Source of the DNA: Naegleria gruberi
Taxonomy: Eukaryota
Strand: one strand, 5' to 3'
Assembly: GCA_000004985.1 (NCBI GenBank)
Contig: GG738849.1
Length of the DNA stretch: 64,000 nucleotides
The notes under the pieces are model-generated. The model made no database searches and was not told the origin of the DNA. It saw only the letters and a program-made list of their open reading frames with translations. This document shows positions 18,001 to 37,809 of the stretch, in pieces (the first letter of the stretch is position 1; each line of letters opens with the position of its first letter). The position numbers and the translations under genes were made by a program.

Positions 18001-18377
18001 ACTATGTAGTTCAGAAAACTGATCAATATGTTAAGCAAAGCAGTGGTCTTGGCAAATTTATTAATTATGATTATGTTCAAGATGATGATGGGGATATTAG
18101 AACAGTACCAAACACTCCTCCACCTGCTGATGAAGATTTGCCAACCAATATTAACAATGCCATTCAAAGAGCTTACAGAGATATCAGCACTGGATTTGAA
18201 GATGCTAAACTTGCTGTCATTGCCATTCCAAAATCTGGTAATGTGTGGACTATTCCAAGAGTTGTACTCTCACCTCTGGCTGGTATGACAGGAGCTATCT
18301 CTAATCTTATGATTGGTATCAGAAGTGAAGTTGATTCTTCTTACAGACAAGAAAACAAAGACCTTTACAAAAAATAA
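12030..18377 (+). CDS. atg2: Autophagy-related protein 2 (ATG2), chorein-N lipid-transfer protein, 2115 aa, intronless
   Basis: The N-terminus ...KKRIFKFVIKRLLGRFIEEPDLSQLDVQL matches the ATG2 chorein-N start (human ATG2A ...VCRYLLHHYLGHFFQEHLSLDQLSLDL). The size (about 2100 aa) and the conserved C-terminal region are typical of ATG2. A single uninterrupted 6.3-kb ORF. Confidence 0.8.
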   Translation: MSGVGSWFIGGFSRLTDPIKKRIFKFVIKRLLGRFIEEPDLSQLDVQLPGSQTHRKASHISGQQTDQIASFDFELKNVQLKVKEINENILMHNSKLSQSSDKDGIPFILSSGYIEKICVKIPSLMDIMKESMILELNGLEVQLQFNGMNEDSGFGNAANSFLFHSTTFHDPNVLATSILLGDVTKSDIAHEFKDLEKEDFEEETDPMNSSMDSSTIFSDTKQEDTVGFNEGHTIISQAVERVISQLKAFVTNVTVRLEFPKPRTTAPIDTPVRIKKEQRLKNVLLLHFPRLEYLDETPKTESWPSKFTYSFIFKGIFLQVFEEYHSSGYKVDKDDESDFPSSSVKRDMNSSSDFTPTSNYIVNTQPSNTLDEGNTIFYGETENNKIKVNIRPSTNAMNGSIFGTPSPTFPIPNSSSKIDIEFDITSIHSVITPSQMDILLQIFETLNSRGINVGFDSFATSSKEEKEASPEFKSFKSDHSTDQIGTNAMLQSIEIPITTKMSETTLIKYQEKLERTKLHEEEVDSENFQFHTFESEPFSDESETEEHQIPEIRKPAGTPKKKTSPPIEKSPMKNVNHRFLTIPKATDTPAFGYNDINLSSSSVPCINFKIDIKLKAATFNLLYEDANLGTMWRTFFRSHDQNSGPDIPGIGHLSLRFVNGISCGVAFSTGGIVTNDNFSGIEQKNINKTDTTFHLTFGDVQLSERLCKESFGGRHIYSELKVLEFLNKPKDSSDPIIDYTYHFKKRENLVKHTLRINSQIQLSFDPGFLQRMNKVSSRLFSKSSLFTKISENANTSQYGAVNAFNENFEQAILDDLDKDQTQIGAPQRVAFDILTCGILIDILLPKEAENGETVFQSTHSYKPDRLRIDCKEIKVKASFREDGNQMLIDNELYQDRIQIDKNATIIPIIVGETNLILIEKKTGTSIVKIRPMKIFATIKPSDENHSMEEDVLYKSYISVPESVSSDFYDEVEHSSLDSSVEEFNGEDDEQDISEDKYIDPSQHEEDVDFSIDSIEDTIIGSKALEKSKISIIIDLAEKNSKSSDFSIEISREHFQKLNDFISKISQALSAVFDENQAHKKPSPKTIDSNPSVAIKFTSNNFTVRLLDTNMSRNCVLKFKKLNALLVMFSNWISKDNQKCTLINAYISNESITFYDEIANSRSYILRREDKLVKGFRQAKNCTNISVNVELYNKSISVQPKIFFSGLFLGSMFPTEENNWRKFLTQFFASDSKTEQKMILDIKTVLQDCALDYQPKDSGNRLILLVDKLGFHTHLNLPTPSKNTIYDINFEGMSLLLHNNFVHDIPKYLQEEIKNKRIPRSEFGFINELHYLCFVTIASLDKLNLKFTQRSVSVEESQASLIFASSTQVDLLGQSSIYKSKIVSKFALTDKEKEIFKHKEPITKLEISDGTLIVNLCKDSLSTLQDVIKQMTAQFATPSSSEQKVTEPENPIVIRYPSLEEIDNPVFTSSTPQNSVNIFEGVNDLQFGFSPKFTNSAVTEGEYALPNRKTNTRTLPSSNNSSASKLSREDSGKTLTPVKTEPQPTGLMSWVTSLMNDYLTEDDSKPQQIKPTITPGSTSYYPQTSSDDEDDDVIVTSIYKDGVGSSTMLGQKSTNTKTLLSSFIQEHTYFPTIKKEDLENDSRLPLDYPTPSFELVLSKCNILCHIFGGKDWADNSESDQMNTSQSSTTSSTFLQFGDLIQSTRDHTKLVQLNLNDLLLQYDTFPNSVANSNVSRLSFSITDIELLDKLKESNRNKILKYWETESEPRETDSKMISLLHEVIRQKGATNANEVRLDIDILPIRLNVHQSTMEFIIEFFTSNKDEIPTTLQNTTMEETKPTYFQQVHISPIQFKVDYQPVRVNLDAVKENGITSYKSVAQMVNLVPINGAEVKIKPIQLNGISGIEEVVSKSTALILDSIDTGDIFRALLGIMPIKSMYSIGTGVADLVVLPIQSYQTDGQVLRGLRRGLSSFVTNLSVGTVQLTSNAATGVNYVVQKTDQYVKQSSGLGKFINYDYVQDDDGDIRTVPNTPPPADEDLPTNINNAIQRAYRDISTGFEDAKLAVIAIPKSGNVWTIPRVVLSPLAGMTGAISNLMIGIRSEVDSSYRQENKDLYKK

Positions 18378-18380
18378 AAA

Positions 18381-21146
18381 TCACTCAAATAATATTCTTC
18401 TCCTTTGATCTGTAATATGTCTATCATAATTTTGATTAGAAATGGCTTTGCCTCTAGTTTCTAAATCCAGTTGATTTTGTAACAATTTGTATTCCTCATC
18501 CTGAGTGAGCCTATGCTGATATCGTTCATACTTGCCCATTTCCTTTTGTACTTTGGATTTGAAAGAAGTATCATCTTGAATAACTCCACTATTTCTAAGA
18601 AAGTCTCTTGTTTGATTTTTCTTCTTGTCCCTTTCATTGCTTACCTTCTTTTGCATGTAAACCTCCACTTTGTTTTTAAACCAATCCTTTTCTCCATCTG
18701 TTTTACAAATAAAAGTTTCAATGTGTTTAAAAGCTGCCTTTCGCATTACTTGATGTCTCTCTTGCTCAAATTGTGAATCAATGTTTTGGGAAACAGCCGA
18801 CATTTCTAAAGTACTATCTGTATAAAATGATTCGTATTCAAGTGTTTCTTGTAGAGATGTCACATAGCTCAAAACAAAGTGCTCACCCTCACTTTCTTTC
18901 GTGGATTTGTTTTTGATTATGTTAGTAATACAATAATCCCTTACGAGCTCTATTCTTTCCTCCCATTTATAGGGAATATAATATAACTGTGATTCTGAAT
19001 TCTCATCCAACTCGGAGTTTAAAACATAATTACTAATCTTTTCAATTAGATTTTGAATAACATGTTTTTTCTTAACTACTTTCAGGTCCAACAGTTCTTT
19101 CAACTTTTCCTCATCATCATTTCCTTTGAAAATCCATTCAAACAATAATGTGGAACTCTCCAATTCTATATCTGATTTTGTGAGATAGGGTAATATATCA
19201 CTGTATCGACTACTTGTCTCAATATATTGGGTTGCCTTCTTGAGAAGATTCTGTACAATGCTCAAATTATGAAGAGGACCCTCTGAGGAAATTAAATGTT
19301 GGAATTTAGAGAAAGGTACATCACCAATTTCCTCCTTGATAGCTTTCAGAAATTGAAAAGATCTAGCTTGTATTTGTTCCATATGATATCGTTCTACTGA
19401 ATTTAGATCTCTAAATGTTTCAATATCATGTCTTGTAATTGTTTCAAGATTTTTGAGAAATGACGGGTAGGATAATTTCAAATTCTCACCCAACATTTTG
19501 GGAATTTCGTCTCTTCTCTCCAAAAAACTTTCCAACTCCATATTCGATAGCTTTACCTTGACTCTATCTAGAAACATATTCTTAAATTCGTTGGATAAGT
19601 CTTCAGGACGAATGTATTCATTAGAATCGATATGAGGTTTGAGAATTGATTTTTCCAATAAACCTTGATACTTCTTATGTTTGTGGTATTCCAATTTTTT
19701 CAATAGAATTTTAGTAATCATTTCGCTCACAACTTGTTTGTGTTCGGTTGATTCCCAGACACTCTCCAGATTTTCAAGATGTTTGAGTCGGTACTGTAAC
19801 TCTTTCTCCTTTTGCTTGATCTGTTCTTCCTTTTTCTGTATGATCTTTTTTGGATCTCTATATAATGGAATCTGTATATTGATTGGACCAACAATATCTC
19901 TATATTGATTCATCCAATTATCAATTTCCCTCGACATGTTTGATGATCGACCCATACTATTAATTCTACTGGAGAAGGTATTATTATTCCAATATGATAA
20001 GCTATTGTTATTATTGCTTTGTAATTGAGTATCATCCATCGAAATGGAAAAATCCTTCTTCCTCTCATTATTTCTATTCTTATTCTGCAAATAGTTAAGA
20101 TAAACTTTTTTGGAAAAATCCACAATTCCCTTGTAGTGAACTCTCTTACTATCTCGTTGTTTGATTGGTTTTTCTGTCTTGTCTATAATATTATTAACGC
20201 TCTCATCATCCAACATTTGAATACCAGGAATTGGTATTAATCTTCTTTGAAGTAGCTGCATAATTGTCATTGAAATAATTTTCAATGCTCTCTTAGAAGT
20301 ACTCTCTCCTGATTGTTGTACAGCTGATGATTGGTTACCATGTCGAGAGTGAATATTGCTCAACTCTGAGGAAATGTTCTCCGTTTCTGATTTTAATCTT
20401 TTCAGTTCTGAAACTATAAATTGAACCAAGGATCTACCATTTTGAGCATTTGGAAGAAACTTATCAATAGCAATTTCCAACAACTCTTTCGGTATTCTTC
20501 TGTATTCCCTTTCTTTTAATTGAAGTTGATAGAGAGCTGTTCTAAGTGCATGTTTAAATTCGTACAATGTAATACTGGTTTCTCCCATCACATTTAACAA
20601 AATTTCAAAAACCTCAGTCTTCAGTTGTTCCCAAATCAAATCCATATTTTGATTTTCAATTCGGCCAGAAGAAGATTTTGAAGATGTCATTTGAGTATTC
20701 TTCCAACTTGAATATTGAGTGTTAGATTGTAACCATTCATCCTGATCATGAAAAAAGTCAACAACCTCTCCATTATTCCACATTAAATTATCCATCATTT
20801 TCCTGATATGATTTTCAATTTCTTCCATTCCTGATTTCTTTTCTAATTTTCTGGAAATGTATCGTGTTAGTTTTTGATATAGTTTTTTGAATTTGGGATG
20901 AACAGAAGGTGAATCACCTTGTGATGACGTTAAACTAAATAAATAGGGACATGTTTTAATTAATATTTGGTTCGGAATTTGATTACCAATAGAGGTTGAT
21001 TCATCATTTTCTTCTGATAATTCTTGTTTGATAGAAGATTGTAAAATCCTATTAAATAAATATTCATTATTTCCTTCCGATGATTTCTTGTTGTTATTAA
21101 CAATACTATTAGATAAATCGTCTAACCAATTATCATTCTCGCTCAT
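18381..21146 (-). CDS. Hypothetical 921-aa coiled-coil protein (orphan), single exon
   Basis: Uninterrupted minus-strand ORF starting MSENDNWLDD. Coding-like composition, predicted coiled-coil stretches, N/S-rich linkers. I recognise no family motif. Its stop lies 3 bp from the ATG2 stop (convergent). Confidence 0.5.
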   Translation of the reverse strand: MSENDNWLDDLSNSIVNNNKKSSEGNNEYLFNRILQSSIKQELSEENDESTSIGNQIPNQILIKTCPYLFSLTSSQGDSPSVHPKFKKLYQKLTRYISRKLEKKSGMEEIENHIRKMMDNLMWNNGEVVDFFHDQDEWLQSNTQYSSWKNTQMTSSKSSSGRIENQNMDLIWEQLKTEVFEILLNVMGETSITLYEFKHALRTALYQLQLKEREYRRIPKELLEIAIDKFLPNAQNGRSLVQFIVSELKRLKSETENISSELSNIHSRHGNQSSAVQQSGESTSKRALKIISMTIMQLLQRRLIPIPGIQMLDDESVNNIIDKTEKPIKQRDSKRVHYKGIVDFSKKVYLNYLQNKNRNNERKKDFSISMDDTQLQSNNNNSLSYWNNNTFSSRINSMGRSSNMSREIDNWMNQYRDIVGPINIQIPLYRDPKKIIQKKEEQIKQKEKELQYRLKHLENLESVWESTEHKQVVSEMITKILLKKLEYHKHKKYQGLLEKSILKPHIDSNEYIRPEDLSNEFKNMFLDRVKVKLSNMELESFLERRDEIPKMLGENLKLSYPSFLKNLETITRHDIETFRDLNSVERYHMEQIQARSFQFLKAIKEEIGDVPFSKFQHLISSEGPLHNLSIVQNLLKKATQYIETSSRYSDILPYLTKSDIELESSTLLFEWIFKGNDDEEKLKELLDLKVVKKKHVIQNLIEKISNYVLNSELDENSESQLYYIPYKWEERIELVRDYCITNIIKNKSTKESEGEHFVLSYVTSLQETLEYESFYTDSTLEMSAVSQNIDSQFEQERHQVMRKAAFKHIETFICKTDGEKDWFKNKVEVYMQKKVSNERDKKKNQTRDFLRNSGVIQDDTSFKSKVQKEMGKYERYQHRLTQDEEYKLLQNQLDLETRGKAISNQNYDRHITDQRRRILFE

Positions 21147-22267: not shown

Positions 22268-23608
22268 CTAAATATTTTTTTTTATTATCCACTTATCAAA
22301 TGGTGGTTGAGATTTCATAGTATTCAATTTGATAACGTAGGTGGATTCTCTCTTTTTAATTTCGTGGTATGTTTTCATGTTTGGTTCCTTGTTTTCCAAT
22401 AGTTGAGCCAGTTCTGCACTCAGTTCCTTTCTTTTAATACAATTAATGAAGGATTTAAAGAAGATGTGTTTAGATAGTTGAGTGGCTGCTTTTGGAGTAT
22501 TTTCATCCTTCTTGGTTGTTCCTTGTTTGTGACCTTTCATACCAATAACAACTTCCTCAACATGAGATTGATTTTCCTGTGCTAAATTCAAGTAAGATCC
22601 TATACTATATCCACTGCCTTTTATCTTTGTTTCTGAAGCTCTATCAGAGAAATGTGGAATATTCGATACACCTTCCTTAAATAAGTAAAACGAAGGAGTC
22701 TTGGTACTTAATTGGTCAACTCTATCAACAATTGATTGATTCAATCGTTGTTGTGTGAGTTCCAAATCCAATTTAGATTTTTCACTCAACAATATTAAGA
22801 ATTTGTCAACAAAAATTGGTTCAAAAAAGTTTGATAATAATGATCCTTGAATTCCTACAACATTCCACTTTGTAATCTTGTCACTGCAGGACATGCTCTG
22901 ATTTCTTGAGCCTCCTCCAGGTTTTAGACGAACTAGATTGATAGTTTGATCCTCTCCAAACTTTTCATGAGTGCATGAATCGTTATGAATAATTTTAGAA
23001 CCAGTTCTACCTTCCAGTATTACCTTCTTTCTTTGTTTTTGGTTCTGATGAGTTTAGTTCTGTTTCATCTAGTTTCCGTTTCATATCATTCGGTTCAACA
23101 TTTTCAGACTTGTTGAGCTGTTCTTCATTATTTGCCTGGCTGTTTTGTTCAATAGTTTCACTTCCACTACTGACAGTACTAGGAGAATTAACAATTGAAC
23201 AATCCCCACCTTGAAAATAATTCTTCTAATAAAATTATGAAAACAATCCAATAACATACATGGCAATTCTGTTAATATCATGTATAATTCAAAATTATTC
23301 TTCAATTTCCACCTCTCCACTTCTTCTACCCAATCAAAATATTCCGAACACTTTCCACTCTCCATTAAATTGTACATAAATTTCATAAAACTTCTCCTTG
23401 CCATAACTTCAGCATGACAATCATGAAGTAAATATCCATTATTGATATCCTTCTCAATCAAGTCATGTCCGATACATTTTGTACCTGTACCAATCGAGCA
23501 GACAATGAATTTCTTTTCTTGTGGGATTGAATTATTAGAGCAATCCACTAAAACGAGAGCTGCAAAAATTGTAAATTCACTTCCTTGTGGTTTTCCTTTT
23601 TTTGTCAC
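22268..23608 (-). CDS. adat1: tRNA-specific adenosine deaminase 1 (ADAT1/Tad1-like A-to-I editase). Exon 1 23608-23260, 50-nt intron, exon 2 23209-22268, with a reading-frame discontinuity near 23022-23044
   Basis: Deaminase zinc motifs HDCHAEVMARR and TELPC|GDCS, the latter split by a GTATGT..CAAG intron. The C-terminal block KVILEGRTGSKII...SMSCSDKITKWNVVGIQGSLL aligns with human ADAT1 KVIDVYRTGAKCV...[21 protein letters not shown]. The frame changes by +1 inside CCAAAAACAAAGAAAGAAGG, with no intron long enough to explain it. Confidence 0.75.
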
Positions 23609-24074
23609 TTTGTCTGAATAAAACTATAGGTAAATAATTAATTGATAATTGTGTTTGAAACTAACTTTAAAAACATGCTTCATAAGATTTCCGAAATGAT
23701 GAGTTGTACAACCGTCATTATTAAATGACATTTTTTATATTTATTATTCTTTAAGATATTATTCTCAACAACTTGTTGCAAACTATTCTTTAATATACAT
23801 CCATAATGAAAATCGATTCAATATTATCCATCACTGAAAACAATTGTATTGAGAGGAGAAACAGACAACAATAGAAGTTGTTTGCTTGAGTAAGGAGCAA
23901 TATTTAAAAATAATATCAAAAAAAAAATTGTACAGCACAATCTTCCTCCCTTTTGTATTCAAACTTTGAACAAGAGAGCATTTTGAAGATTTAAATCACT
24001 TCCGCATTAAAAATAGTATTAATATTACTAGTGTGTTATTGTTAAATAGATTACTTTGTTGCGAATACTTTAGA

Positions 24075-27000
24075 ATGGCTGACGATTTATTGGATGGAAT
24101 TGATGATCTTTTTGATGACGATGATATTTCAAACCTTTTATCCTCAACAGATAATACTACACCAAGTCAAAATATACAACAACCCACACAAACATCACAA
24201 CAAATTCCCCTACCAAGACCTTCATCCTCTGTTTTAAATCATCAACCAATCAATGTTCCTACAGTAATCACATCAAACATGAGGTCATCATCCACTACGA
24301 TCCCAATGCCTCAACAACAACAACCCTTTAATAATGCTTTTAATAATAGGAGTAGTCAACCATTTATTAATTTCCACGGAATGAATCCATCTCATAACGT
24401 TATCAATCCTAACCAAATGCATACCATGAACAAACCAACAATGACTCAACAGGAATATCTGAATTTGATGAGAAATCCAAATCAGAACTACATACCTTCA
24501 AATCCTTCTTCATCCAATAACAATAATAATTTTATGAGGATGAATTCACTCCCCCTCAACCTTCCAAACATTAATAGCAACAATAGTAATACTGCAACAC
24601 ACAATCCTTACCTCATGCAAGTGGCTAATCTCAACAAACAACAACAACTTGTCAAAAGTTTTACAACTCAACAACCACAAGGTAAATACTCCTCCTCAGC
24701 AACTGCACAAGTAGCTCCACCAAAACCATCTATTCCTCTCCATTCTGTCATTAACCAAATGGGAGGAAATCCAAAACTCCAATTTTCAACAATGGTCAAT
24801 CCACCACCTTCTTCTGCTTCTGGTAATGCAAAATTGGCTCATTCATTCTTAAATTCTATTCAACAACTCAATACACCAACAGGTGGCGTAATACCTCCTT
24901 CTTTTTTCACATCAGCCCCATCAGCCCCAATTCAGATCACTCTACCAACAAGCACAAAGGGATTTCTTGAAATTTCAGCTGGTACAAAGTTAGGAAAGAA
25001 ATGGCCTAAACTTTTGAGTGAAATTCCAAAAGTTGAGATCACTGTTGTAAATAATAGAATATGGCAATCTTTGACCTCATCTCCAAACTCTAATGCTGAA
25101 AATAATTCCATCAGATGTTATGTTCCAGATTTTGGTTCAGAGTTTGATGATTTTGATGATGATGATCTTGATGATGAAGAGGACGATATGCTATCAGACG
25201 ACGAAGAGTTCAATAATATGGATGAGGAATCCTTTGACTTGAACAAATTTAATTCTAAAACCAAAAAGAGTCAAGGTATGAAGAGAACAAGGTCTGGAGA
25301 AAGACCAAGACAAAAAAGTAATGCGTGTGTCTATTTATTTTCTCCGAATAGAGAAGCATTTGGATATATTAGTTCTCAAGAGTATAATAATTGCTTTGTT
25401 CCTCTTTCTAAACACAAAGTAATCATGATAACTGTATCTCCACTTCCAAGTACTGATAATTCAGGAAGATTTTTTGTTTCTCTCAAAGTTTATCTTGTCA
25501 AAAAAGCCCTTGTGACTGATAAGAATATTCTCGAGTCTAATAATGATTCTAATGATTCCAATAACAATATTTTGACAACAGCTGTTGATGGAATGGCTGA
25601 TGAGCAAATTAGAATCTATAATATTCGTAAAAACTTTTTGAAAAAGTTATTCGAAATTTTAGATAGAAATAATTGTTCAACAGGTGCTTCTTCCTCTTCA
25701 GATTTAACTGAATATGATTCTAGCAAAGTGAGAAAGACGAGTGAATCTGATATTAATGCTTCTAGAATTAAACAAGAGGAAGAGGATGATCTTGATGCCC
25801 TCGATGACACTGATTTGGATGAGTACATTATTCAAAAAGCACCAGCTTCCAGCTCTACAAGCAGTTCTAACTTGGATATCCAAGGTACTGATAAGAGTCT
25901 AGAGAAGCAACTCGAAGAGTTGTACGATGAGATTGAAAAAACAATTGTTGATGATGAAAATGCAGAGAATGATTTTTCTGATGAGGAGGAATCGAGTCAT
26001 CACGAAATTGAAATTCCTGACGATACACTCTTAACGGCTGATCTTAGAAGTTATCAAAAGACTGCTGTGAAATGGATGCTTAAACGTGAAAGAATTGGAG
26101 AAGATAAAGTCAAAACCACACCCAAGTTACACTCCCTTTATCAAGAAAGAAAATTCCCAGACGGAACAGCATTTTACTTTAATCCTCTTAATGGTATTAT
26201 AACATTGACATTTGTTCCTGCTCCACCTGAACCAAAGGGTGGTATTCTTGCTGAGTAAGTTTTTATTTTCGAATACTGGTTACTAATTTAATAATTTTTT
26301 AGTGAAATGGGTCTTGGTAAGACTGTAGAAGTAATTGGCTTGATTGCCTCCAATAGAATGAAAGGAAAAAAGAATACACAAAAAGTTGGTGACAAGTATC
26401 AATCTCCTGCTACTTTGGTTGTAACTCCATTGACTATTGTTGACCAGTGGAAGCAAGAAATTGAAAAGCACACAAACAATCAACTCAGTGTATACGTTTA
26501 TCAAGGTAGTAGGCGTATCAGAGATGCACCAACACTTCTCAAATATGATGTAATTATTACCACATACAACACACTTAGTTTCGAGTTTAGTCAAACTTAT
26601 ACACCAGCAAAAGAAAGGTCCAACGCAAAAAAGAAACAAACGAAGGATACATCAATGCAGCAACCTAGTCCAATATACAAGATGAAATTTTTCAGAGTTG
26701 TTCTCGATGAAGCTCACAATATTAAAAATAGAAAGTCTCTTCAGGCCAGGGCTACAGCAGCTGTTGATGCAGAAAGAAGATGGGCAGTCACCGGTACACC
26801 AATTCAAAATCATATTGATGACTTATTCTCACTATTCCACTTCTTGAAAGTTAATCCACATGGAGATTGGAGATGGTGGTCAAGGTTTATTGGCAAACCA
26901 TTCGAAAAGAAGGATAAGAAGGCTATTGACGCTCTTCAATCTGTTATCAAGAAGTTGGTCATTCGTAGAACAAAGAATAAGAAGATTAATGGTAAAAGAA

Positions 27001-28151
27001 TTGTCATGTTGCCACCAAAGAGAATCGAGACAGTCAATATACAATTTACTGAGGCAGAGAGTAATTTTTACAAATCTCTCTACGAGTACAGCAAGGGTAA
27101 ATTTAACGAGTTTGTTAGAAGTGGAACTGTTCTTAAAAATTATGCAAACATTTTGGAAATGCTTTTGCACTTGAGACAGGTTTGCAACCATCCAGCTCTC
27201 ATCATTACAAGTTTCCAGAAGAAATCTGAAAAATCAACCATGAATGGCTTCTTGGAAAGTTTTGAACAAAAGAATGCCTTTGAAGTATATGATTCTATTT
27301 TACCAATGTTACCTCAAGTTTTAAAACTTAATAAGGAAAAGAACAAACCAAAACAAAATTTGGAAGATGGCATGATTTCCTCTCAACTCAAAGCTATTAA
27401 TGTTACTAAATATATGAGGACTAATTGGAGATCGAGTAGTAAGATTGGAGCTCTTATAGAAAAATTGAGAGTTTTAGAGTTGGGAACTAAATCAGTTGTG
27501 TTCTCACAGTGGACATCCATGTTGGACTTGGTAGAAGTAGCTCTCGAAAAATCTAACATTAAATTCGTCAGACTTGATGGTAAAATGCAAAGAAAAGACA
27601 GAGATGATGCAGTACAAAAATTCAAATTTGATCCTCATATTCAAGTTTGTCTTATTTCCCTCAAGGTTGGTGGTACAGGGTTGAACTTGGTTTGGGCTAC
27701 ACATGTATTTTTATTAGATCCATGGTGGAATCCTGCTATTGAAGAGCAAGCCATTGATAGAGTTCACCGTATTGGTCAAGATAAGCCTGTTACTGTTTTC
27801 AGATTCGTTGTAAAGGATTCAGTTGAAGAACGTATTTTGAGTTTACAAAAGAGTAAGACTAAAATTGCCAATGAAGCGCTCAATCTTGGTGGAAGTGATG
27901 ACGAGGAAGAAGAAAATTATACAACCTATACAACATCATTCTTGGGTGGCTCATTTGGTGGTGGTGCTTTGAAGAGCAAGTCATATGACTCTGATGAAGA
28001 ATATGAGGATGACGATGAAGACGAATTCAATGAAGTAACTGTAGATGACTTGGAGGATGAAGAATCAGGATCTGGTGGTGCCATGTTTGGCCATACCAAG
28101 AAGGATGCTCAAAAAATACGTATCAAGGATTTGTCTACAATCTTTGTTTAA
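24075..28151 (+). CDS. SNF2-family DNA-dependent ATPase of the Rad5/Rad16/lodestar lineage, with no RING finger visible between the ATPase lobes. Exons 24075-26254 and 26303-28151
   Basis: A 48-nt GTAAGT..TAG intron splits the codon GA|T and reconstitutes canonical motif I, ILA-DEMGLGKT. Further motifs are DEAHNIKNRKS (motif II), VTGTPIQNHIDDLFSLFHFLKV and the helicase-C block LISLKVGGTGLNLVWATHVFLLDPWWNPAIEEQAIDRVHRIGQ. The N-terminal 700 aa are N/Q/S-rich and acidic. Confidence 0.8.
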
Positions 28152-28242
28152 TAAAACAAGAATTATTGTCTACAATCTCTTTAATTCTAATAAATGTGAA
28201 CTGAATGACACAAAAGAGGAAACATAAAATTATGATAAAAAA

Positions 28243-29091
28243 ATGAGTCAACAGCCTTTTTTCCAGAAGGTTACACAGGCAAGAAAGAGCAAGTCTTCTG
28301 TTCCGAATACATCTACAAGCTTTTTTTCCACTTTAAATGCAACACTCCAAAACGATACAAGCGATAGGGATTTTTTGAATTATTTTAGTCTGAGTGAAGA
28401 GGATCACCAGAGAAGTGATGAAGCCCTTGGTCTTCGTACACAACATGATCCAGAAGCTAGTACACCATTAGCACCAGAAGATGATGAGGATGAACCTGTG
28501 GGGGATGAGGAAAACTCTCCAATATCACAACCAACACCTAGGACAAGACCTAGGCATCCAAACTATGGAATGAAAACAGTGAGGCAAACTTCTGCCTCTT
28601 CATCAAATAATCCAAATGAAAAACGAAAAAGAAAGCAAAGGTGGCTTCAAGAAATTCGAAAATATCAAAAATCAACTAGGAATCTCATTCCAAGGGCATC
28701 TTTAATTAGATTAATCAAACAAGTTACTGCCGAATTATCTGAGAAAATTCCATACATTAGACAGCTTGCTGGTGAAGGTGCAATTCGATGGAGAAAGGAT
28801 GCTCTTGCTGCTCTCCATTCAGCAGCAGAAGATTTTTTACATGAATTTTTAACACTTTCTAACTATGCCACATTGCATGCCAAAAGAGTTACACTCATGG
28901 GTAGGGATTTAAAGCTTGTACAAAATATTAATAGGGAACACAATAGACATAGTAACAATGCTGGAGGAAAGAAACAAGCGTCATTTCAAGAAAGACCAGC
29001 AAGGAAGAGAAAGGATCCCAAGCGTAAGGACCTTTCAGAGTCAGTCCCAGAAAATAGTGATGATTCTATGAGAGATGAAGAGTCCTCATAA
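28243..29091 (+). CDS. Centromeric histone H3 variant (CenH3/CENP-A-like): long divergent N-terminal tail, H3 histone fold with extended loop 1, plus a roughly 45-aa basic/acidic C-terminal extension
   Basis: Histone-fold region RWLQEIRKYQKSTRNLIPRASLIRLIKQV...LHAKRVTLMGRDLKLVQNI compared with H3 [28 protein letters not shown]...IHAKRVTIMPKDIQLARRI. Loop 1 (SEKIPYIRQLAGEGAIRWRKDA) is longer than in canonical H3, and the N-terminus is non-H3. Both are CenH3 hallmarks. Confidence 0.75.
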   Translation: MSQQPFFQKVTQARKSKSSVPNTSTSFFSTLNATLQNDTSDRDFLNYFSLSEEDHQRSDEALGLRTQHDPEASTPLAPEDDEDEPVGDEENSPISQPTPRTRPRHPNYGMKTVRQTSASSSNNPNEKRKRKQRWLQEIRKYQKSTRNLIPRASLIRLIKQVTAELSEKIPYIRQLAGEGAIRWRKDALAALHSAAEDFLHEFLTLSNYATLHAKRVTLMGRDLKLVQNINREHNRHSNNAGGKKQASFQERPARKRKDPKRKDLSESVPENSDDSMRDEESS

Positions 29092-29160
29092 TTTCAAATC
29101 ACTTTGTAAATAGCCTTTAACTGTAACAATATCAAAAATTGTAAAATATGTTCATGTATG

Positions 29161-29189
29161 TGATCGAATTTTAATACCCGCCATTTTTT
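29161..29189. promoter_or_regulatory. Composite TGTATGTGATCGAATTTTAATACCCGCCATTTTTT upstream of the FIGL1-like AAA ATPase
   Basis: Shares the 14-mer TGTATGTGATCGAA with the 4574-4587 element, and an E2F-like CCCGCCATTTT 10 bp downstream of it. Confidence 0.45.
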
Positions 29190-29200
29190 CTTCACTTCCA

Positions 29201-31147
29201 GTGTTTGTTCGAAATGCTAAATTAAAAAAAATGTCTGAACACTGCTCACTTTCGGAACAACTTGCGACCATACTAGTGCTACGAGAGGAAAATTTACTCT
29301 CTGAACCAAAACGAACGGACACTGTGGAAGTAACAATACCCGATTATTTTTCAAAACATTATAATAGAGTTTTAAGAGATCCTCTGGGGGAGTATCGTTC
29401 TCTGATTGAAGTACAATCGGTTGAAGAGGCTAATAGTTTTATAACATTTTCTAAACAAATCTTTAATCAAGTCTCTGTGGAGAATAATATAGTAGAACCA
29501 TCAAATTATAAATTAATATCAAAATCAGAAATCACAAGACAGTCACCACTTCTCCAAGCGTTAATGGTGAAAAGACAACACGAATATATTGCACCAAAAA
29601 TTGTAAATGTACCTTCATCTGTTGTTCGATCAACAACTCCGAGCTTTGAAAATGTAAATAGTAATAATTCAGTTGTACAGCAACAACAAATAGGAAGGAA
29701 GCCTATTCGATCATCTCACAACAACAAGTCTTCTGATGTTATGGTCATTGATGATGACGAGGAAAAACAACCAAAAAGTTCCTTCGTGACAGCTAAACAA
29801 TTAGTGAAGAAAAACAAGGGTAGTAATAGTAAGGATATTATGTCTGATGATGAAAATGAAGAGGAAACAATCAAGAAAAAGACATTGAGCGACATTAAAA
29901 ATCCAACCTCTAACTATCATCCAGTCACTTCATTGACAAGAAATTGTGGAGAAAATACAGGTGGAACGAAAAGGAAAAAGTTTGTGCCACCTTTGAAAGA
30001 TAATGGCAATAATAATAGTAATAATAATAATAATTCGAGTTCAAATTCAGGAGAAAAGCCTGCAAAAAAGAAAAAGAAAGGTGCTGATGATGAAAAGGCT
30101 CCTGATTTATCTAAATTATTTGAGGATGGTGAAATACCAGAGGAGTTGTCACATCTAGATCCTAAATTGATTGAGACAATTTCTAATGAAATTTTGGAAT
30201 CTAAAGTATCTGTAACTTGGGATGATATTGCTGGTTTGGCCTATGCAAAGAAATCAGTGCAGGAGGCTGTTATTTGGCCCCTAATGAGACCAGATTTATT
30301 TACAGGATTAAGAAAGCCTCCAAAGGGTAAGTTATAATTTCTGTTTAAAATATTCAAATTTATTTAAAATATTAATGAAATAGGACTTTTATTATTTGGA
30401 CCACCTGGTACTGGTAAGACACTGATTGGTAAGGCTATTGCTCATGAGAGTGGATCAACCTTCTTTTCCATTTCTGCATCCAGTTTAACCAGTAAATGGG
30501 TTGGTGAAGGTGAAAAATTGGTGAAAACACTATTTTCTCTGGCTAGATATTTCCAACCTTCTGTTGTTTTTATTGATGAAATTGACAGTTTACTTTCTCA
30601 AAGAAGTGATGGAGATGCTGACAATGGATCTAGAAGACTCAAAACAGAATTTTTAGTTCAATTGGATGGTGCTTCTACAAATGATGACCAAGATAGAATT
30701 TTGATTGTGGGTGCAACCAATAGACCAGAAGAAATTGACGAAGCTGTCAGAAGAAGAATGGGCAAGAGATTGTACATTCCTCTTCCATCTAAGGAGGGTA
30801 GAAAGGAAATGTTTTTGAGACTTCTCGCCAAGAATCCTAATACACTCTCTGATGAAGAAATGGAAAAGTTAGTAGAACTCACTGATGGTTATTCGGGTTC
30901 TGATATCAAAAATCTTTGTGCTGAAGCTTCTATGTTCTCAGTTAGAGATCTTGGATCATTTATTAAGCATGCGTCAGCTGATCAATTGAGGCCAATTGAG
31001 TTTAAGGATTGTAGATCAGCCCTTAAATCAATTCGTCCTTCTGTAGCACAAAGTGATCTAGATAGATATATTGAATGGAATAGAACATTTGGTTCTTTTG
31101 ATTTTGATGAGAAGGAACAAGAAGAGTCATCAGCAAAAAGTGATTAA
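29201..31147 (+). CDS. AAA ATPase of the meiotic clade (fidgetin-like 1 type). Exons 29201-30326 and 30384-31147
   Basis: A 57-nt GTAAGT..ATAG intron splits the codon G|GA and restores ...[27 protein letters not shown] (Walker A). Downstream motifs are [11 protein letters not shown] (Walker B), [21 protein letters not shown] (second region of homology with arginine finger) and the C-terminal WNRTFGSF. A non-ATPase N-terminal region precedes the ATPase; the start may be ATG 29201 or 29231. Confidence 0.8.
30008..30034 (+). repeat. (AAT)n imperfect microsatellite encoding an Asn/Ser run in the FIGL1-like gene
   Basis: aataataatagtaataataataataat. Confidence 0.85.
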
Positions 31148-31483
31148 AATTTTTATTGTGTATTCTTCATCTTAATCAATTAGCTACTCCAGATAATTTA
31201 ACAAAACTCGATGTCTGTCGATATTGAACTAGGTGAAAGGAATCCGAAACTTAAAATCACTTAATACCAACATTGGGGACAGAAAACTTTGTTATCCTTG
31301 ACTTGTTTTGCAAAACTCTGTTATTGATAGTTGAAGAATCCAATAAATCCAAGAAAACACTTTTCTTTGTTAATGCTAAAATATATTTCTGAATTTTTCA
31401 GATTTAACATTTCACCGATTCTTGTGATATTTTTCACATCATGCTGTTTTCCATAGTTCTTTGAAGGTTCCATTCTCATCAGA

Positions 31484-32099: not shown

Positions 32100-33218
32100 T
32101 CAATTTTTTAAATCCATCTCAAAATTGATGCAAACATCGTAATATTTTGAATTTTTCAGCATGATTCTATGATATTTACAATTTGGTGATCCATAAAGCA
32201 ATTCACACACAAAATCCAATTCTTCCAATGTTGAGGGAAGATACAATGCTTTTCCTCTTCTTCTACATCTTCCAGATCGCATTCTACTAATTGCCTTATC
32301 ACAAATGACATCAAAATGCACAACCAATTCGCACCACTGCATGTCAATTCCATACCAATCATCATGAGTGCCAATCAAATACAACGATTCATAATACAGT
32401 TGATGTAATTTCCCACACTGAGGAACAACCAATAGGGAGGGAAATATTGAATCTTTTAGAATGACATGAAACTGCTCTGCTCTGGAGTAGGTATTGCAGA
32501 ATAGTACCGTAGAGACAGTTCCATTTTGAATGGATTGTAGCAAGCTGAGCTTTTGATCCATTTTTGGACAATAGACGAAATTCTCATAAATATTATCTCC
32601 CAACTGCTTCTCTCTTTGATCGAATGTAATAATAAGTGAATCCTTCAAATAATCATCATACATGTAACATTCTTTGGGTAACATTCTCAAACCAGTTCCC
32701 AGAATTTCACATCCTTTTGGGAGTTGATTGAAAATACTCTTAATACACTTTCTTCTTCCACATCCAATCTCTAACATGATATCCATTTCATCAATTGCAA
32801 GAATTTCCAAACTAGTAAAATTAATTCTATTCTTCTTAATTGCTAATTCTGGAGTGGTAATCAAAATTCTTGGATTTTCTCTCCAATCACTAGAAATTTT
32901 CGCCTCTTGAATAAAATCAGCAAGAGCAAGCATAGCACTTCTTACTTGATAGGCCAAAAACTCGTTCGGAACTAGAACTAAACCTTGCAATTGATCATCC
33001 TTCTTTGAAAAATCAACATGTTTCAATACTTTAATTATCAATCCAATAGTTTTCCCTGATCCTGCAATCCATTGAACTAGTGTGCAAGATTTCGTTGATT
33101 CAAAAGATTTCAAGATGGCTATTTGGGAGGGAAGCATCATTTCAAATCCATAGCAATAAATTCCTTTTAAAAGATTCTCCGAAACATTTAAATCCTCAAA
33201 AGATGTAGAATCAGACAT
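32100..33218 (-). CDS. Divergent eIF4A-like DEAD-box helicase paralogue with degenerate catalytic motifs (DEMD in place of DEAD), 372 aa, intronless
   Basis: Collinear with the eIF4A N-terminus: FEDLNVSENLLKGIYCYGFEMMLPSQIAILKSFESTKSCTLVQWIAGSGKTIGLI compared with [53 protein letters not shown]. Motif II is LAIDEMDIML, and motif VI is degenerate (SRMRSGRCRRRGKA). Confidence 0.65.
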   Translation of the reverse strand: MSDSTSFEDLNVSENLLKGIYCYGFEMMLPSQIAILKSFESTKSCTLVQWIAGSGKTIGLIIKVLKHVDFSKKDDQLQGLVLVPNEFLAYQVRSAMLALADFIQEAKISSDWRENPRILITTPELAIKKNRINFTSLEILAIDEMDIMLEIGCGRRKCIKSIFNQLPKGCEILGTGLRMLPKECYMYDDYLKDSLIITFDQREKQLGDNIYENFVYCPKMDQKLSLLQSIQNGTVSTVLFCNTYSRAEQFHVILKDSIFPSLLVVPQCGKLHQLYYESLYLIGTHDDWYGIDMQWCELVVHFDVICDKAISRMRSGRCRRRGKALYLPSTLEELDFVCELLYGSPNCKYHRIMLKNSKYYDVCINFEMDLKN

Positions 33219-33410: not shown

Positions 33411-36400
33411 ATGAGCCTGAACGGAAATGTTACACCTCCTACATCATTATTGAACAACAATAGAAAAAACAAAGTTATTGGTGACGATGATGATGATGAG
33501 GACATGGTGTCCTCCAATAATAATAATAATAACAATAATAACAATAATAACAGTGCTAACGTTTCGCAAGGAGGTTCTGCATCAGCTAATAGTAGAAGGA
33601 AAGAAGAAAAGAAAGTGGTGAAGAGTTATGATGAATCGGAGAGTGCTAGCGATATGGACACAGATTCTGAGTCTGATGTATCGGATACTAGTAATAGTAG
33701 TTCTTCGGGAGAAGAAGAAGAAGGTATGTTAAATAATTATTTAGAAAATTAATAGTGTCATTTTGATATATTAAAAAAACAGAGGATGGATATTTGTGGA
33801 ATATTACTGAAGAAGATGGAAAAGATGTTGCTGTCCGAGGTTATGAGCATAGGTTTGTTTTTAAAAGGGCTATATAATATTTAATATTCTCGGAATTGTT
33901 TTTAATATCATCATCGTTAGAGGCGAAAACAAAAATCCAACTGCACCAGTTATGATGCAAATGAAAAAGTCCAAAAAAATTAATTTTCCAATTACTGTGA
34001 AAGATAACAAGTGTTCTATCGGATTATCTGGGTATTGTATGATAAAGGCGTCACACTGTATGGAGAGCGGATCGTATTATTATGAAGTCAAAATTGAGGA
34101 ATCCGTATCATGTGACACAACCAAACTTCCTGATTATGCAAAACAAAGTCATTATAGATGTGGATGGAGTATGGAGCAAGGATTCGATAAAGCTTGTTGT
34201 GGATACGATAAATACTCATTTAGTTATGGAAGTAGTGACGGAAATTGTTTTCATAAAGGAAAAGGATCTAAATACGGAGAAAAGTTTGGAGTTGGAGACA
34301 TAATTGGATGTTATATTGAAATACCAGATACCTCAACACCCAATATAATTTATGTTGATGGAAGTATGAGTTTAAAAACTGGAGAAGTTTTCAGAACAAA
34401 GATTGCTACATTGGCAGAGAAAATTGTACCAAATAGCAAAATAATCTTCTTCAAAAATGGAAAATTTCAAGGTGTCGCTTTTACTGATATCCCATATGGA
34501 GCATACTTTCCAGCTATTTCACTATATATGAATGCAAGCGTAACAATGAAATTTGAAAAATATCAACTACAATATAACCCTTATGATATCTGCCCAGAAT
34601 ATATTGCTAAAGATTGGAAACCTGTTGGTGATTTGAGACACCGTAATAAGAACACTCAAAAAACTCCAAGAAAGTCAAATTCACAAAACGAATTCAAAAC
34701 TCCACCTAGTATTTCAAAAGGCAACTTGAAAGAGATTGGAAAGGGTGCTTCTAAACAATTTCATCAATCACCATCCCAAAACAGACATTCAAAAATTGCC
34801 TCAGCCACAATTACTGAAAATAAGAAACCAAAAGAAAAGAAGGAAAAATCTGAGAAATCTCATCATCATCATTCCCATTCAGGACATGGTGATAAGAAAA
34901 CTAAAAAAAAGAAGGAACCAAGGCCATCCAATTCAAGTACCACAGATTTGAAAAAACCAGTTACTGATAAGCAGCCTTCTCCTTCTATTGTTATTGAAAA
35001 ACCTCCAATTGAATTACCACCTCCTCCACCTACTGTTTCAGTTGTCACTTCTACTGAAGTTCCAAAAAGTGTTACTGAGAAGAAAGAAAAGAAAAAGAAA
35101 CCAAAGCCTTTAAGGATTATTACAGACGAAACAGACCTACCAAACATTAAGGAAACAAAACCAAAAATTCAAGATTCTCCAAGATTACCACTAACCCCAT
35201 CTAGTTTGAACCAAAGCTCTGACTCTCCTCTTGTCAGAAGTTCCTCTTCCATGTCAAGGGTGCCAAGTTACTCTGATGTTATGCCTCCTTCTCCTGTTCC
35301 TCCACAACCAAAATCAGATCAGCAAAAATCAACAACACCAACTTTGGATAAGAATACTCGTTCTCCTTCCTCTGCAGGCTCATCGTCTTCAATTAGGAAA
35401 TCTAATAGTGGAACCAGTCTAGAAAAGAGTACATCCTCATCGACACCAACTACACCTGCCACTATCTCAACACCAATCTCAGCAACAAGCACTGCCTCTT
35501 CCTCTTCTGCAAGTAACGCAACTACACCTGCAATAATTCCTCCTGTAAATGATGTCATGCCTGTAAATAAGCCATATATAACAAACATGTCTGACAAGCC
35601 TATCGTTCAATCCTCATTTCCTTCGATTGAACAAATTACACCTCAAGCCAAGGAAAGGAAATCTAAACCAAAGTCTGAAGGTTCATCAATCATGGCTAGA
35701 TCAAAAAATTTCACACCAAAGAAAGTATTAGCCAAGAAGGAAGATTCGGTACCTGTAAAAACTGCTCCTAAGAGAAAGGCTCCAAGTAAAGATGAGGAAC
35801 CTGTCATTCATCACCACACAGTTAAGCTTTTGGATCCGAAAGATCTTCAACAGGCAAAGAAAGCTAAACCTACTCCATCTGCTGAGACAACACCTGTGGC
35901 TACTAATGCACCAAGTGAACCAAAGCCATCATCACCAACTAAGAAACGAAAGACAAGCAAGGCTGAAGCAAAAGAACCAAAGGAAACTCCATCATCTACT
36001 AAAACCAAGGACGAAAACAAAAAGATTGATTCTATTGAACAGGTTACTAGTAATGTAAAAGAAGCTATTCCTGAAAGAATTATGGAGACTATTATTCCTA
36101 AACAACAAATTCAACAAACAGTACATAATCCTGTTCAACCAACAGCTGTGAATCAAACCATACAAGATGCCTCTAAAAACATTTTACAGACCTCTCAACA
36201 TTACTCATCACAACTCAATCAGATTAGTCAACCAAATGTGCAAACAGTTCAGCAACCACAACACGTTAGCACGCAACAATCTTCCACTCCTCAATATGAA
36301 AGATCGAATGCAGAACCAGCATATTCATTTTCTAGTTTGCTGTTAGGATCACCAAACACTTCAAAGAGTATACAAGATCAAATAGGTCAAATATCGTCCT

Positions 36401-37809
36401 CTTCCTCAAACAATTTGAATCACCAATCTTCACAGATACCTGTTAATAATAGTAATTTTTACAAAAATACCTCCCAAGTTTCTACTACCGAAAGAAAACA
36501 AGATTGGCCTGTACATCAGTTACAGACACCAAACAGTGTAACAGCAGCAAGCATGGCAAACACATCATCATCAGTTAGAAATATGCAAACAAGCTTGCCG
36601 AATAATGTTCAAGATATGTCACCAAGTTATCAATCTAGAATGTCTCTTGAAAATCTTATGGCTCAAAACAAACATGAAAATTTGAGATTACTGGAACAAA
36701 TTAATACTCTGCCAAAGGATATTCCAAAGCAACCAAATCCAATGCAAGTCTCTACTCCAACAATGACAAGCCATACTCCTTCTTTCCGTGAATTACTCGA
36801 AACACCAAGTAGCTTTAATTCATCCTCCAGTAGTTCACAAATGTCTAATTCCAATAATTTCTTGACTTCTCAATCAAGAAACATACCTTCAACCGTACCA
36901 CAACAGCAACAGAAGGTTGGTAATCCAAATTTTGTAAACTATCAAATTGGTAAGGATCATACCCAAGGATCAAATCTAGGCAATACCAACAACTATTCCA
37001 ACTATCTACAACAACAACAACAACAACAGCAGCAAGCAGTTAATGAAGTGAAGCAATTGAGTCAACAGGTTTCGAATCAAAATATTTCAAATAATTATGG
37101 TCAATATTCCCAACAACAAAGAGGTAACTTCCAAACCAATACTGCCTATTCATCCAATATGAACACTGCCTCACATAATTTCGCACCTCACCACCAAAAT
37201 GTATTGGTCAACAATACTTCTGCCAACAACATGAATGTAAACCAAAATAACATGACCAATATTGCAAGTATGTCAAATATGAATCAAATGACATCAAATT
37301 TGATGAATAGTCAGAATAGCTCCAAATATAATTCTCTTCAAGGTGCTTCTCTCAACTATCCAACCATGAATCAACAATCCCAGCAACAACAAATTACAAG
37401 TTCATATTCAGGAAATATGGGAGGTCAACCAAAGCAAAATATGATGAGCACTTCTCAACAAGCTTTTAATCAACACCAACATTCCCAACAAACATTGTCT
37501 CATAATCAGCAACAACATTCCCAACAACAATACTCTTCGAATAATATTCCAAGAGGTTTTGCACCACAACAAATTAATCCACAGCAACTGGGAAATAGTC
37601 AAATGACCTCTAATCACCAACAACAATCAATGAATGTTGGTAATTCCAATAACAATATGCAACAATTCCTTCCTGGTATGCATCAGCAATTGCCCAATAA
37701 TTCCCACAACTTCCAAAACTACCAACAAAACAATTCACAACAACAACAAAACACTGGGCAACAATCATCTTTCAAATACTCTTACCTCAATAATAATATC
37801 AATAAATAA
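33411..37809 (+). CDS. ASH2-like SPRY-domain protein (Set1/COMPASS subunit homologue) with a C-terminal low-complexity Q/N/S/P tail of about 1000 aa. Exons 33411-33723, 33783-33852 and 33921-37809
   Basis: SPRY core GYCMIKASHCMESGSYYYEVKI...RCGWSMEQGFDKACCGYDKYSFSY...[38 protein letters not shown] compared with human ASH2L [20 protein letters not shown]...RLGWSQPLG...[29 protein letters not shown]. Two introns (59 and 68 nt, phases 1 and 2) link an acidic and poly-N first exon and a 70-nt micro-exon to the SPRY exon. I see no PHD or winged-helix region. Confidence 0.75.
33517..33552 (+). repeat. (AAT/AAC)n microsatellite encoding poly-Asn in ASH2-like exon 1
   Basis: aataataataataataacaataataacaataataac. 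Confidence 0.9.
37008..37039 (+). repeat. (CAA)n(CAG)n microsatellite encoding poly-Gln in the ASH2-like C-terminal tail
   Basis: acaacaacaacaacaacaacagcagcaagcag. Confidence 0.9.

Follow-up and report, generated by a model that had tools for sequence, protein, structure and literature searches.

Several CenH3 histones can occur in one genome, one of them being the main mitotic form, as is the case for the Cid paralogues of Drosophila, HCP-3 and CPAR-1 of C. elegans and the alpha and beta CENH3 proteins of plants. In such lineage-specific paralogues the tails and loop 1 account for most of the differences. To our knowledge, those of Drosophila, C. elegans and plants differ in their N-terminal tails and not by a long C-terminal extension. 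CENP-C reads CENP-A through its C-terminal tail, and loop 1 together with alpha2 (CATD) is the part recognised by the Scm3/HJURP chaperones. A first-pass annotation of the DNA described here had named both CENP-C and Scm3 as readers of the extreme C-terminus, which is correct for CENP-C but not for Scm3/HJURP. The gene in question lies at positions 28243-29091 of a 64,000-nucleotide stretch of Naegleria gruberi DNA (assembly GCA_000004985.1, contig GG738849.1), the whole of which is called the window below. In CENP-A, Cse4 and Cnp1 only a few residues follow alpha3, whereas the protein predicted from this gene adds a disordered tail of 49 residues.

The protein is likely to be a genuine and intact CenH3-family paralogue, one of three in the genome, that has a conserved disordered C-terminal tail and is not the principal centromere mark. 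The kinetochore histone of N. gruberi was described in a 2026 preprint (doi 10.64898/2026.08.18.745565), in which an antibody raised to residues 1-94 of CENP-A1 (XP_002682707.1) labelled punctate nuclear foci that co-localised with CENP-C and followed the spindle microtubules. For the two other CENP-A paralogues the preprint reports either mitotic down-regulation or levels under the detection limit, and it suggests that they may have no kinetochore function. The gene at 28243-29091 is one of these two, as inferred from the three-member CenpA list (PMC5579357). CENP-A1 (P0135 in our searches) is a separate protein of 230 residues ending RIRGVAREAVYH, and its N-terminal tail, the target of the antibody, is unrelated to that of the present protein. 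The first-pass annotation had spoken of a structurally atypical centromeric histone. Its designation as the centromeric histone of the organism is not supported, since the antibody-validated kinetochore histone is the product of another gene and the remaining paralogues are mitotically down-regulated or undetected; the present protein is probably not the main centromeric histone.

The two proteins belong to the same family and share a long disordered N-terminal tail, a tryptophan at the position of H3 F84 and the same core fold residues. They are nevertheless only 39% identical in the fold, and CENP-A1 has a short C-terminus and a loop 1 just two residues longer than that of H3. What CENP-C reads at the CENP-A C-terminus is said to be hydrophobicity of a generic kind (doi 10.64898/2026.08.18.745565). 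CENP-A1 ends GVAREAVYH, which is more hydrophobic than REHNRHSNNAGG, the first 12 residues after alpha3 in the present protein; these are all polar or glycine/alanine, with no hydrophobic residue among them. The short hydrophobic C-terminus directly after alpha3, which acts as the CENP-C handle, is absent from the present protein.

The gene is a single uninterrupted open reading frame on the plus strand (28243..29091), running from ATG to TAA with zero internal stops. It is thus a complete, intronless coding sequence for 282 residues plus the stop codon, within a window that is dense in genes, has about 34% G+C and is eukaryotic in its gene content. The first-pass annotation had given the coordinates, the sequence of alpha3 and the tail string of 48 residues exactly. 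The public model, XP_002681626.1/EFC48882.1 ("histone H3, partial"), has only 109 residues and matches residues 125-233 in an exact-sequence look-up. It lacks a start codon, the N-terminal tail and the C-terminal tail, and it ends ...NINREH. Both tails of the 282-residue histone fall outside this model, which is a homology-limited fragment. An exact-protein look-up of the full reading frame and of two neighbouring reading frames gave no match.

The sole full-length public gene call for this histone is on a metagenome contig, k127_156732 of ENA ERZ929261, where a separately called allele of 282 residues (P0126) is found. The contig is 99.5% identical to positions 23247-31169 of the window over 7.9 kb, with 20 mismatches and 5 gaps, showing that an N. 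gruberi-like strain is present in that sample. The environmental allele keeps the whole reading frame, with three synonymous and two non-synonymous changes and an unaltered tail; five differences in 849 nucleotides are too shallow for a test of selection.

Judged from profile matches and alignments, the gene encodes an H3-fold protein of the CenH3 type. The fold occupies residues 125-233 (28615..28941, plus strand) and was delimited by Pfam, a PDB phmmer search, alignment and predicted helices. It comprises alphaN, alpha1, loop 1, alpha2, loop 2 and alpha3, the last reading ...RDLKLVQNINREHN. Pfam Histone (PF00125) matches residues 99-226 with E=1.9e-21. The protein matches 174 H3/CenH3 sequences in the PDB, and the top ranks are taken by CenH3 structures: Cnp1 (1.1e-14, 58 bits), Cse4 (3.4e-13, 53 bits) and human CENP-A (8.4e-12, 48.6 bits). 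H3.3 comes close behind (3.7e-11, 46.4 bits) and is followed by H3.1 (about 5e-10). In an AlphaFold2 model made with a shallow alignment (mean predicted local distance difference test, pLDDT, 55.5) alphaN spans residues 124-148, alpha1 154-168, alpha2 185-214 and alpha3 220-239. The H3 fold and the alphaN helix had been called correctly in the first-pass annotation, and structure prediction of the fold together with its tail gives the H3 helices followed by a disordered segment.

The lengthened loop 1, also noted earlier, is longer by 12 residues than that of human H3, by 10 than those of human CENP-A and N. gruberi CENP-A1, and by 8 than that of the N. lovaniensis orthologue discussed below. 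The lengthened segment (residues 166-181, SEKIPYIRQLAGEGAI; 28738..28785, plus strand) precedes R182-W183 in the alignment and has a predicted short helix at residues 170-175. Upon alignment to human H3, Q68 is found to be replaced by A163, F84 by W183 and T107 by S206. Substitutions of F84 and T107 are reportedly regarded by Malik and Henikoff as marks of CenH3. On the other hand, R69, H113, R116, T118, D123 and L126 of H3 are invariant in human H3, human CENP-A and the Naegleria paralogues. These retained residues correspond to DNA contacts and to part of the H3-H3' four-helix bundle, which makes incorporation into nucleosomes plausible.

The fold and the residues for DNA binding and the four-helix bundle are therefore shared with canonical H3 and H3.3, from which the protein differs by the absence of an ARTKQTARKS tail, by the three substitutions and by its low identity (33% to human H3). 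Its identity to the other N. gruberi paralogues is 36-39%. With human CENP-A, Cse4 and Cnp1 it has in common the H3 fold, a longer loop 1, the loss of Q68 and the tryptophan at the F84 position, and with Cse4 also a long unrelated N-terminal tail. However, loop 1 of human CENP-A exceeds that of H3 by only 2 residues. The criteria for CenH3 given in PMC7052976 include at least one extra loop 1 residue relative to H3 and loss of the alpha1 glutamine (Q68); the long loop 1, the lost Q68 and the divergent N-terminal tail place the protein within them.

Published work agrees with the assignment to CenH3 rather than to canonical H3, which the first-pass annotation had made. In the phylogeny of van Hooff et al. 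2017 (PMC5579357, Dataset EV1) the gene is NGRU000526 of the CenpA orthologous group, and in the best-hit classification of Grau-Bové et al. 2022 (Supplementary Table 2) its fragment is classed as H3_cenH3, with a cenH3 score of 96.8 bits as against 191.8 for CENP-A1. The gene is thus already catalogued as a CenH3/CenpA-family member, but by its fold only, and the full-length form is undescribed. A literature search found no description of a CenH3 C-terminal extension and no mention of the accession of this gene.

The C-terminal extension consists of residues 234-282 (NRHSNN...DEESS; 28942..29088, plus strand) and is recognised by its codon usage, outlying length, disorder and conservation. 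In the AlphaFold2 model alpha3 runs on to residue 239, and residues 240-282 have no secondary structure, with pLDDT values of about 45-55. The extension includes the stretch DLSESVPENSDDSMR. A regular-expression and charge scan locates a basic cluster at residues 243-262 (KKQASFQERPARKRKDPKRK; 28969..29028, plus strand), whose KK…RKRK…KRK arrangement fits the bipartite nuclear-localisation consensus. The acidic, serine-rich end that follows (residues 263-282, DLSESVPENSDDSMRDEESS; 29029..29088, plus strand) has S-x-x-D/E (CK2-type) sites and is the portion of the tail that is conserved.

All three segments of the gene (N-terminal tail, fold and C-terminal tail) have in-frame codon usage. For the C-terminal tail the log-likelihood ratio of in-frame codon usage is 15.4, compared to 11.7 +/- 5.1 for true coding pieces, and none of 3000 off-frame pieces reaches this value. 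The tail contains no GT...AG interval that by its length could plausibly be an intron; introns verified in neighbouring genes measure 47-63 nucleotides. The ATG of the next gene follows only 140 bp after the stop codon. Because of the coding-like codon usage, the reading frame retained in the second strain, the tail in N. lovaniensis and the little room left for another end, the tail is probably translated. The unusual extension after the fold reported in the first-pass annotation is in this respect real, being 49 residues long, coding-like in its codons and kept at the same length in N. lovaniensis.

The N. lovaniensis protein was found when 1.84 billion cluster representatives were scanned with HMMER. 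It is XP_044545339.1 (C9374_008699, "hypothetical protein"), has 359 residues and aligns to residues 21-280 of the query. As in N. gruberi, the next gene downstream, on the same strand, encodes the AAA/Vps4_C ATPase, and the two ATPase genes are orthologous. The AAA domain of this neighbour is 83% identical between the two species, whereas the histone fold is about 36-41% identical and the full histone proteins about 30-36%, a divergence at which synonymous sites would be saturated. The N. lovaniensis gene has a canonical 63-nucleotide GT-AG phase-2 intron within alpha3 (PYSW02000035.1, 8892-8954), and its second exon encodes the end of alpha3 and a tail of 52-53 residues. This intron is absent from the N. 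gruberi gene and has been either gained or lost between the two congeneric species.

The tails of the two orthologues are equal in length, and both contain SFQ[E/D] and DP and finish in an ENS-acidic run. Their acidic ends compare as …ENSDDSMRDEESS against …ENSEDESVLDDEE and as …VPENSDDSMRDEESS against …DMENSEDESVLDDEE; DLSESVPENSDDSMRDEESS of N. gruberi aligns to DYQEEDMENSEDESVLDDEE of N. lovaniensis. The tail-to-tail Smith-Waterman score is 42, compared to 28.1 +/- 4.9 for composition-preserving shuffles, of which 66 in 5000 reach it (p about 0.013). The N. gruberi tail has 13 lysine and arginine residues and the N. lovaniensis tail has 2, so that the basic cluster, apart from the common SFQ[E/D] and DP, is specific to N. 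gruberi. Of the basic-then-acidic tail described in the first-pass annotation, the acidic end is therefore a conserved feature and the basic part is not. The orthologue also differs in its loop 1, which is only 4 residues longer than that of H3, and in a fold closer to H3 (47% identity, compared to 33% for the N. gruberi protein).

The N-terminal tail (residues 1-124; 28243..28614, plus strand) is not H3-like and, with 124 residues, is close to the 130 or so first claimed for it. It has in-frame codon usage, and in the alignment no motif of the ARTKQTARKS type is found. Residues 71-90 form an acidic patch, and a basic run, NEKRKRKQR, lies just ahead of alphaN. Most of residues 1-121 have no predicted structure, pLDDT being below 50 over most of residues 2-121. 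The start, MSQQ, resembles the MSRQQ of the N. lovaniensis orthologue. The two proteins also share a motif at residues 49-62 of the N. gruberi tail (SLSEEDHQRSDEAL; 28387..28428, plus strand) with the pattern LSxxDxQRSxxAL, which aligns to GLSDFDLQRSEQAL of N. lovaniensis. The N-terminal tails as a whole give a Smith-Waterman score of 65, compared to 41.8 +/- 7.4 for shuffles, a value reached by 20 of 2000 (p about 0.01). The same motif is partly present in P0129, a metagenomic relative. Lying in a tail that cannot otherwise be aligned, it makes a candidate short linear motif, which might be bound by a chaperone or a kinase, for instance.

The length of the C-terminal tail was compared among the 151 nearest H3-family cluster representatives by counting residues after the position aligned to I229. 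The present protein has 53 such residues, the median is 8 and canonical H3 has 5. There are at most 15 residues in 121 of the 151, in keeping with the earlier statement that most H3 and CenH3 proteins end soon after alpha3, and more than 30 in 14, including the protein's own allele and the N. lovaniensis orthologue. A long C-terminal tail is thus rare but not unique among the H3-family proteins compared. Five uncharacterised metagenomic H3-like proteins (P0270, P0240, P0191, P0271 and P0142) have C-terminal extensions of 50-160 residues, and the long tails of the first four are charged. P0270 combines a near-canonical H3 N-terminal tail with a basic-then-acidic C-terminal tail of 58 residues. 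Long C-terminal tails on H3-fold proteins may be a recurrent, overlooked feature of protists, or they may be artifacts of gene calling.

Other searches for relatives added little. The profile search found no N. fowleri or other heterolobosean orthologue. A first, word-indexed homologue search returned four distant CenH3 proteins only and missed the gene's own partial record. The contigs that carry SNF2 homologues at 64-74% identity lack this histone gene. A first scan of metagenome DNA confirmed no relative, and a second, which was saturated by generic H3/CenH3 sequences at 43% identity or less, gave no close orthologue.

Some observations do not sit easily with an intact, tailed paralogue set apart from the kinetochore. 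The text of the preprint does not assign the present paralogue to either the down-regulated or the undetected category. A BLAST search with XP_044545339.1 scores CENP-A1 and the present protein equally, at 100 bits each, so that the case for orthology is made by synteny and by an alignment that extends over the full length, both tails included. The N. lovaniensis protein is the sole tailed orthologue found, and the similarity of the tails is modest (p about 0.01). P0129, which is closest in the fold (41%), has a tail of 8 residues and no loop 1 insert, and the public model does not extend beyond the fold. P0129 comes from a 6.5-kb contig of JGI metagenome 3300059473 and shares KQRWL-EI-KYQ and SN-ATLH with the present protein; it may be a heterolobosean orthologue that never had a tail, or its gene call may have been cut by an intron.

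These observations have been weighed together with three other explanations. The protein might be a functional centromeric histone, acting alongside or instead of CENP-A1, whose C-terminal tail remodels the CENP-C interface. All CenH3 sequence hallmarks are present, the published orthology and classification agree, and the fold evolves very fast when measured against the neighbouring AAA domain, at a rate typical of CenH3. Nevertheless, this explanation is unlikely, given that the validated kinetochore marker is XP_002682707.1, that the other two paralogues are mitotically down-regulated or undetected, and that REHNRHSNNAGG offers no hydrophobic residue after alpha3 where CENP-A1 has GVAREAVYH. 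A different possibility is that the tail never becomes part of the protein, the product ending near alpha3 because of an unrecognised splice, early polyadenylation or read-through into a 3' untranslated region. Such a truncation would agree with the ...NINREH end of the public model and the short tail of P0129, and a run of 49 open codons has a chance of 0.053, or about 5%, at this base composition. The public model, however, also lacks a start codon and the entire N-terminal tail; the codon score of the tail is above the coding mean and is not reached off-frame; there is neither a plausible intron in the tail nor much sequence before the next ATG. Moreover, the N. lovaniensis tail is equal in length, has a similar acidic terminus and is encoded by the exon that also carries the last part of alpha3. 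The absence of the tail from the N. gruberi protein is therefore very improbable.

Decay has also to be considered. The gene could be a drifting CENP-A duplicate, a pseudogene in the making with tails that have no meaning, and the reportedly low or non-mitotic expression of the paralogues, the 36-39% identity to them and the cenH3 score, about half that of CENP-A1, would fit a loss of function. Against this, the 282 codons are intact and the key fold residues invariant, the allele of the second strain is intact, and the N. lovaniensis orthologue is likewise intact, with a correctly spliced alpha3 and conserved motifs in both tails. Decay is accordingly a very unlikely explanation as well. The interpretation as an intact CenH3-family paralogue with a conserved C-terminal tail, distinct from the principal centromere mark, is the one that accounts best for the observations. 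The retention of tail length and of the acidic end in N. lovaniensis points to a constrained feature at the level of the genus and not to read-through.

The histone gene is situated between two genes on the same strand. Upstream, two reading frames, 24033-26258 and 26307-28151, form one SNF2/Rad5-like helicase gene (24033-28151, plus strand); helicase motif I (DEMGLGKT) becomes complete once a GT..AG intron of about 47 nucleotides is removed. The SNF2/Rad5-like frame immediately before the histone gene matches an N. gruberi protein at 100% identity, in agreement with the origin of the window. In neither frame was a RING or HIRAN domain found. The public N. gruberi SNF2 model is a 489-residue partial, and an exact look-up of it gave no match. 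Downstream is the neighbour conserved in N. lovaniensis, a katanin/fidgetin-like AAA ATPase with a Vps4_C domain (29231-31147, plus strand); its Walker A motif, GPPGTGKT, is made whole when a GT..AG intron of about 57 nucleotides (about 30327-30383) is taken out. In the leader of the histone gene there is a four-codon upstream reading frame (28232-28246; ATG ATA AAA AAA TGA), whose stop codon shares two bases with the start codon of the histone gene at 28243. This small frame may serve to control translation, or it may have arisen by chance in a leader rich in A. An Rfam search of positions 28000-29400 at E<=1 gave no match, including to RF00032, the 3' histone stem-loop of replication-dependent histone genes.

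Elsewhere in the window are genes for a C2-domain protein (6143-8959), ATG2 (2115 residues; 12030-18377, plus strand), a DEAD-box helicase fragment (32100-33218, minus strand), a SPRY-domain protein (33952-37809), an ABC-2 transporter (39028-41439, minus strand) and a TrkH-type cation transporter (45479-47995, minus strand). Pfam gave no match for the long reading frames at 18381-21146 (minus strand), 24033-26258 (plus strand, the N-terminal SNF2 part) and 42142-44541 (plus strand).

Most likely, the protein would replace H3 in a subset of nucleosomes, because the fold keeps the residues for pairing with H4, for DNA binding and for the H3-H3' four-helix bundle. If its geometry is that of the CENP-A/CENP-C structures, the C-terminal tail would leave the nucleosome on the face next to the H2A-H2B acidic patch, which is the normal docking place of CENP-C. 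The acidic, serine-rich end with its many CK2-type sites would then most likely act as a phosphorylatable module for docking, masking or auto-regulation, and such a module would alter the binding of partners to that face. The basic cluster of N. gruberi would probably be a nuclear import signal or contact DNA or the acidic patch. We only infer these functions of the tail, whether docking, masking or import. Since CENP-A1 marks mitotic kinetochores and the other paralogues are reportedly not up-regulated in mitosis, the paralogue would most likely be used outside vegetative mitosis or on non-kinetochore chromatin.

A bolder proposal, which we consider doubtful at present, is that Naegleria keeps a second, genus-specific class of CenH3-derived nucleosome, in which the conserved, acidic and phosphorylatable C-terminal tail occupies or masks the CENP-C site and recruits another partner on non-vegetative or non-kinetochore chromatin. 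Such nucleosomes could mark, for example, the chromatin of cryptic meiosis, of encystment or of the amoeba-to-flagellate switch. If this were true, a CenH3 paralogue would have been repurposed by a C-terminal and not an N-terminal innovation.

Description of the Naegleria kinetochore has only begun, and just one of the three CENP-A paralogues is validated. Antibodies, tagged constructs and expression studies should be based on the full 282-residue model, with both tails and the start codon, and not on the fragment of the fold. CenH3 tails specify kinetochore assembly, and a conserved C-terminal tail of about 50 residues would be a natural experiment on the CENP-C interface. Should the paralogue be stage-specific, it might also become a marker for unobserved sexual or other non-vegetative stages of Naegleria.

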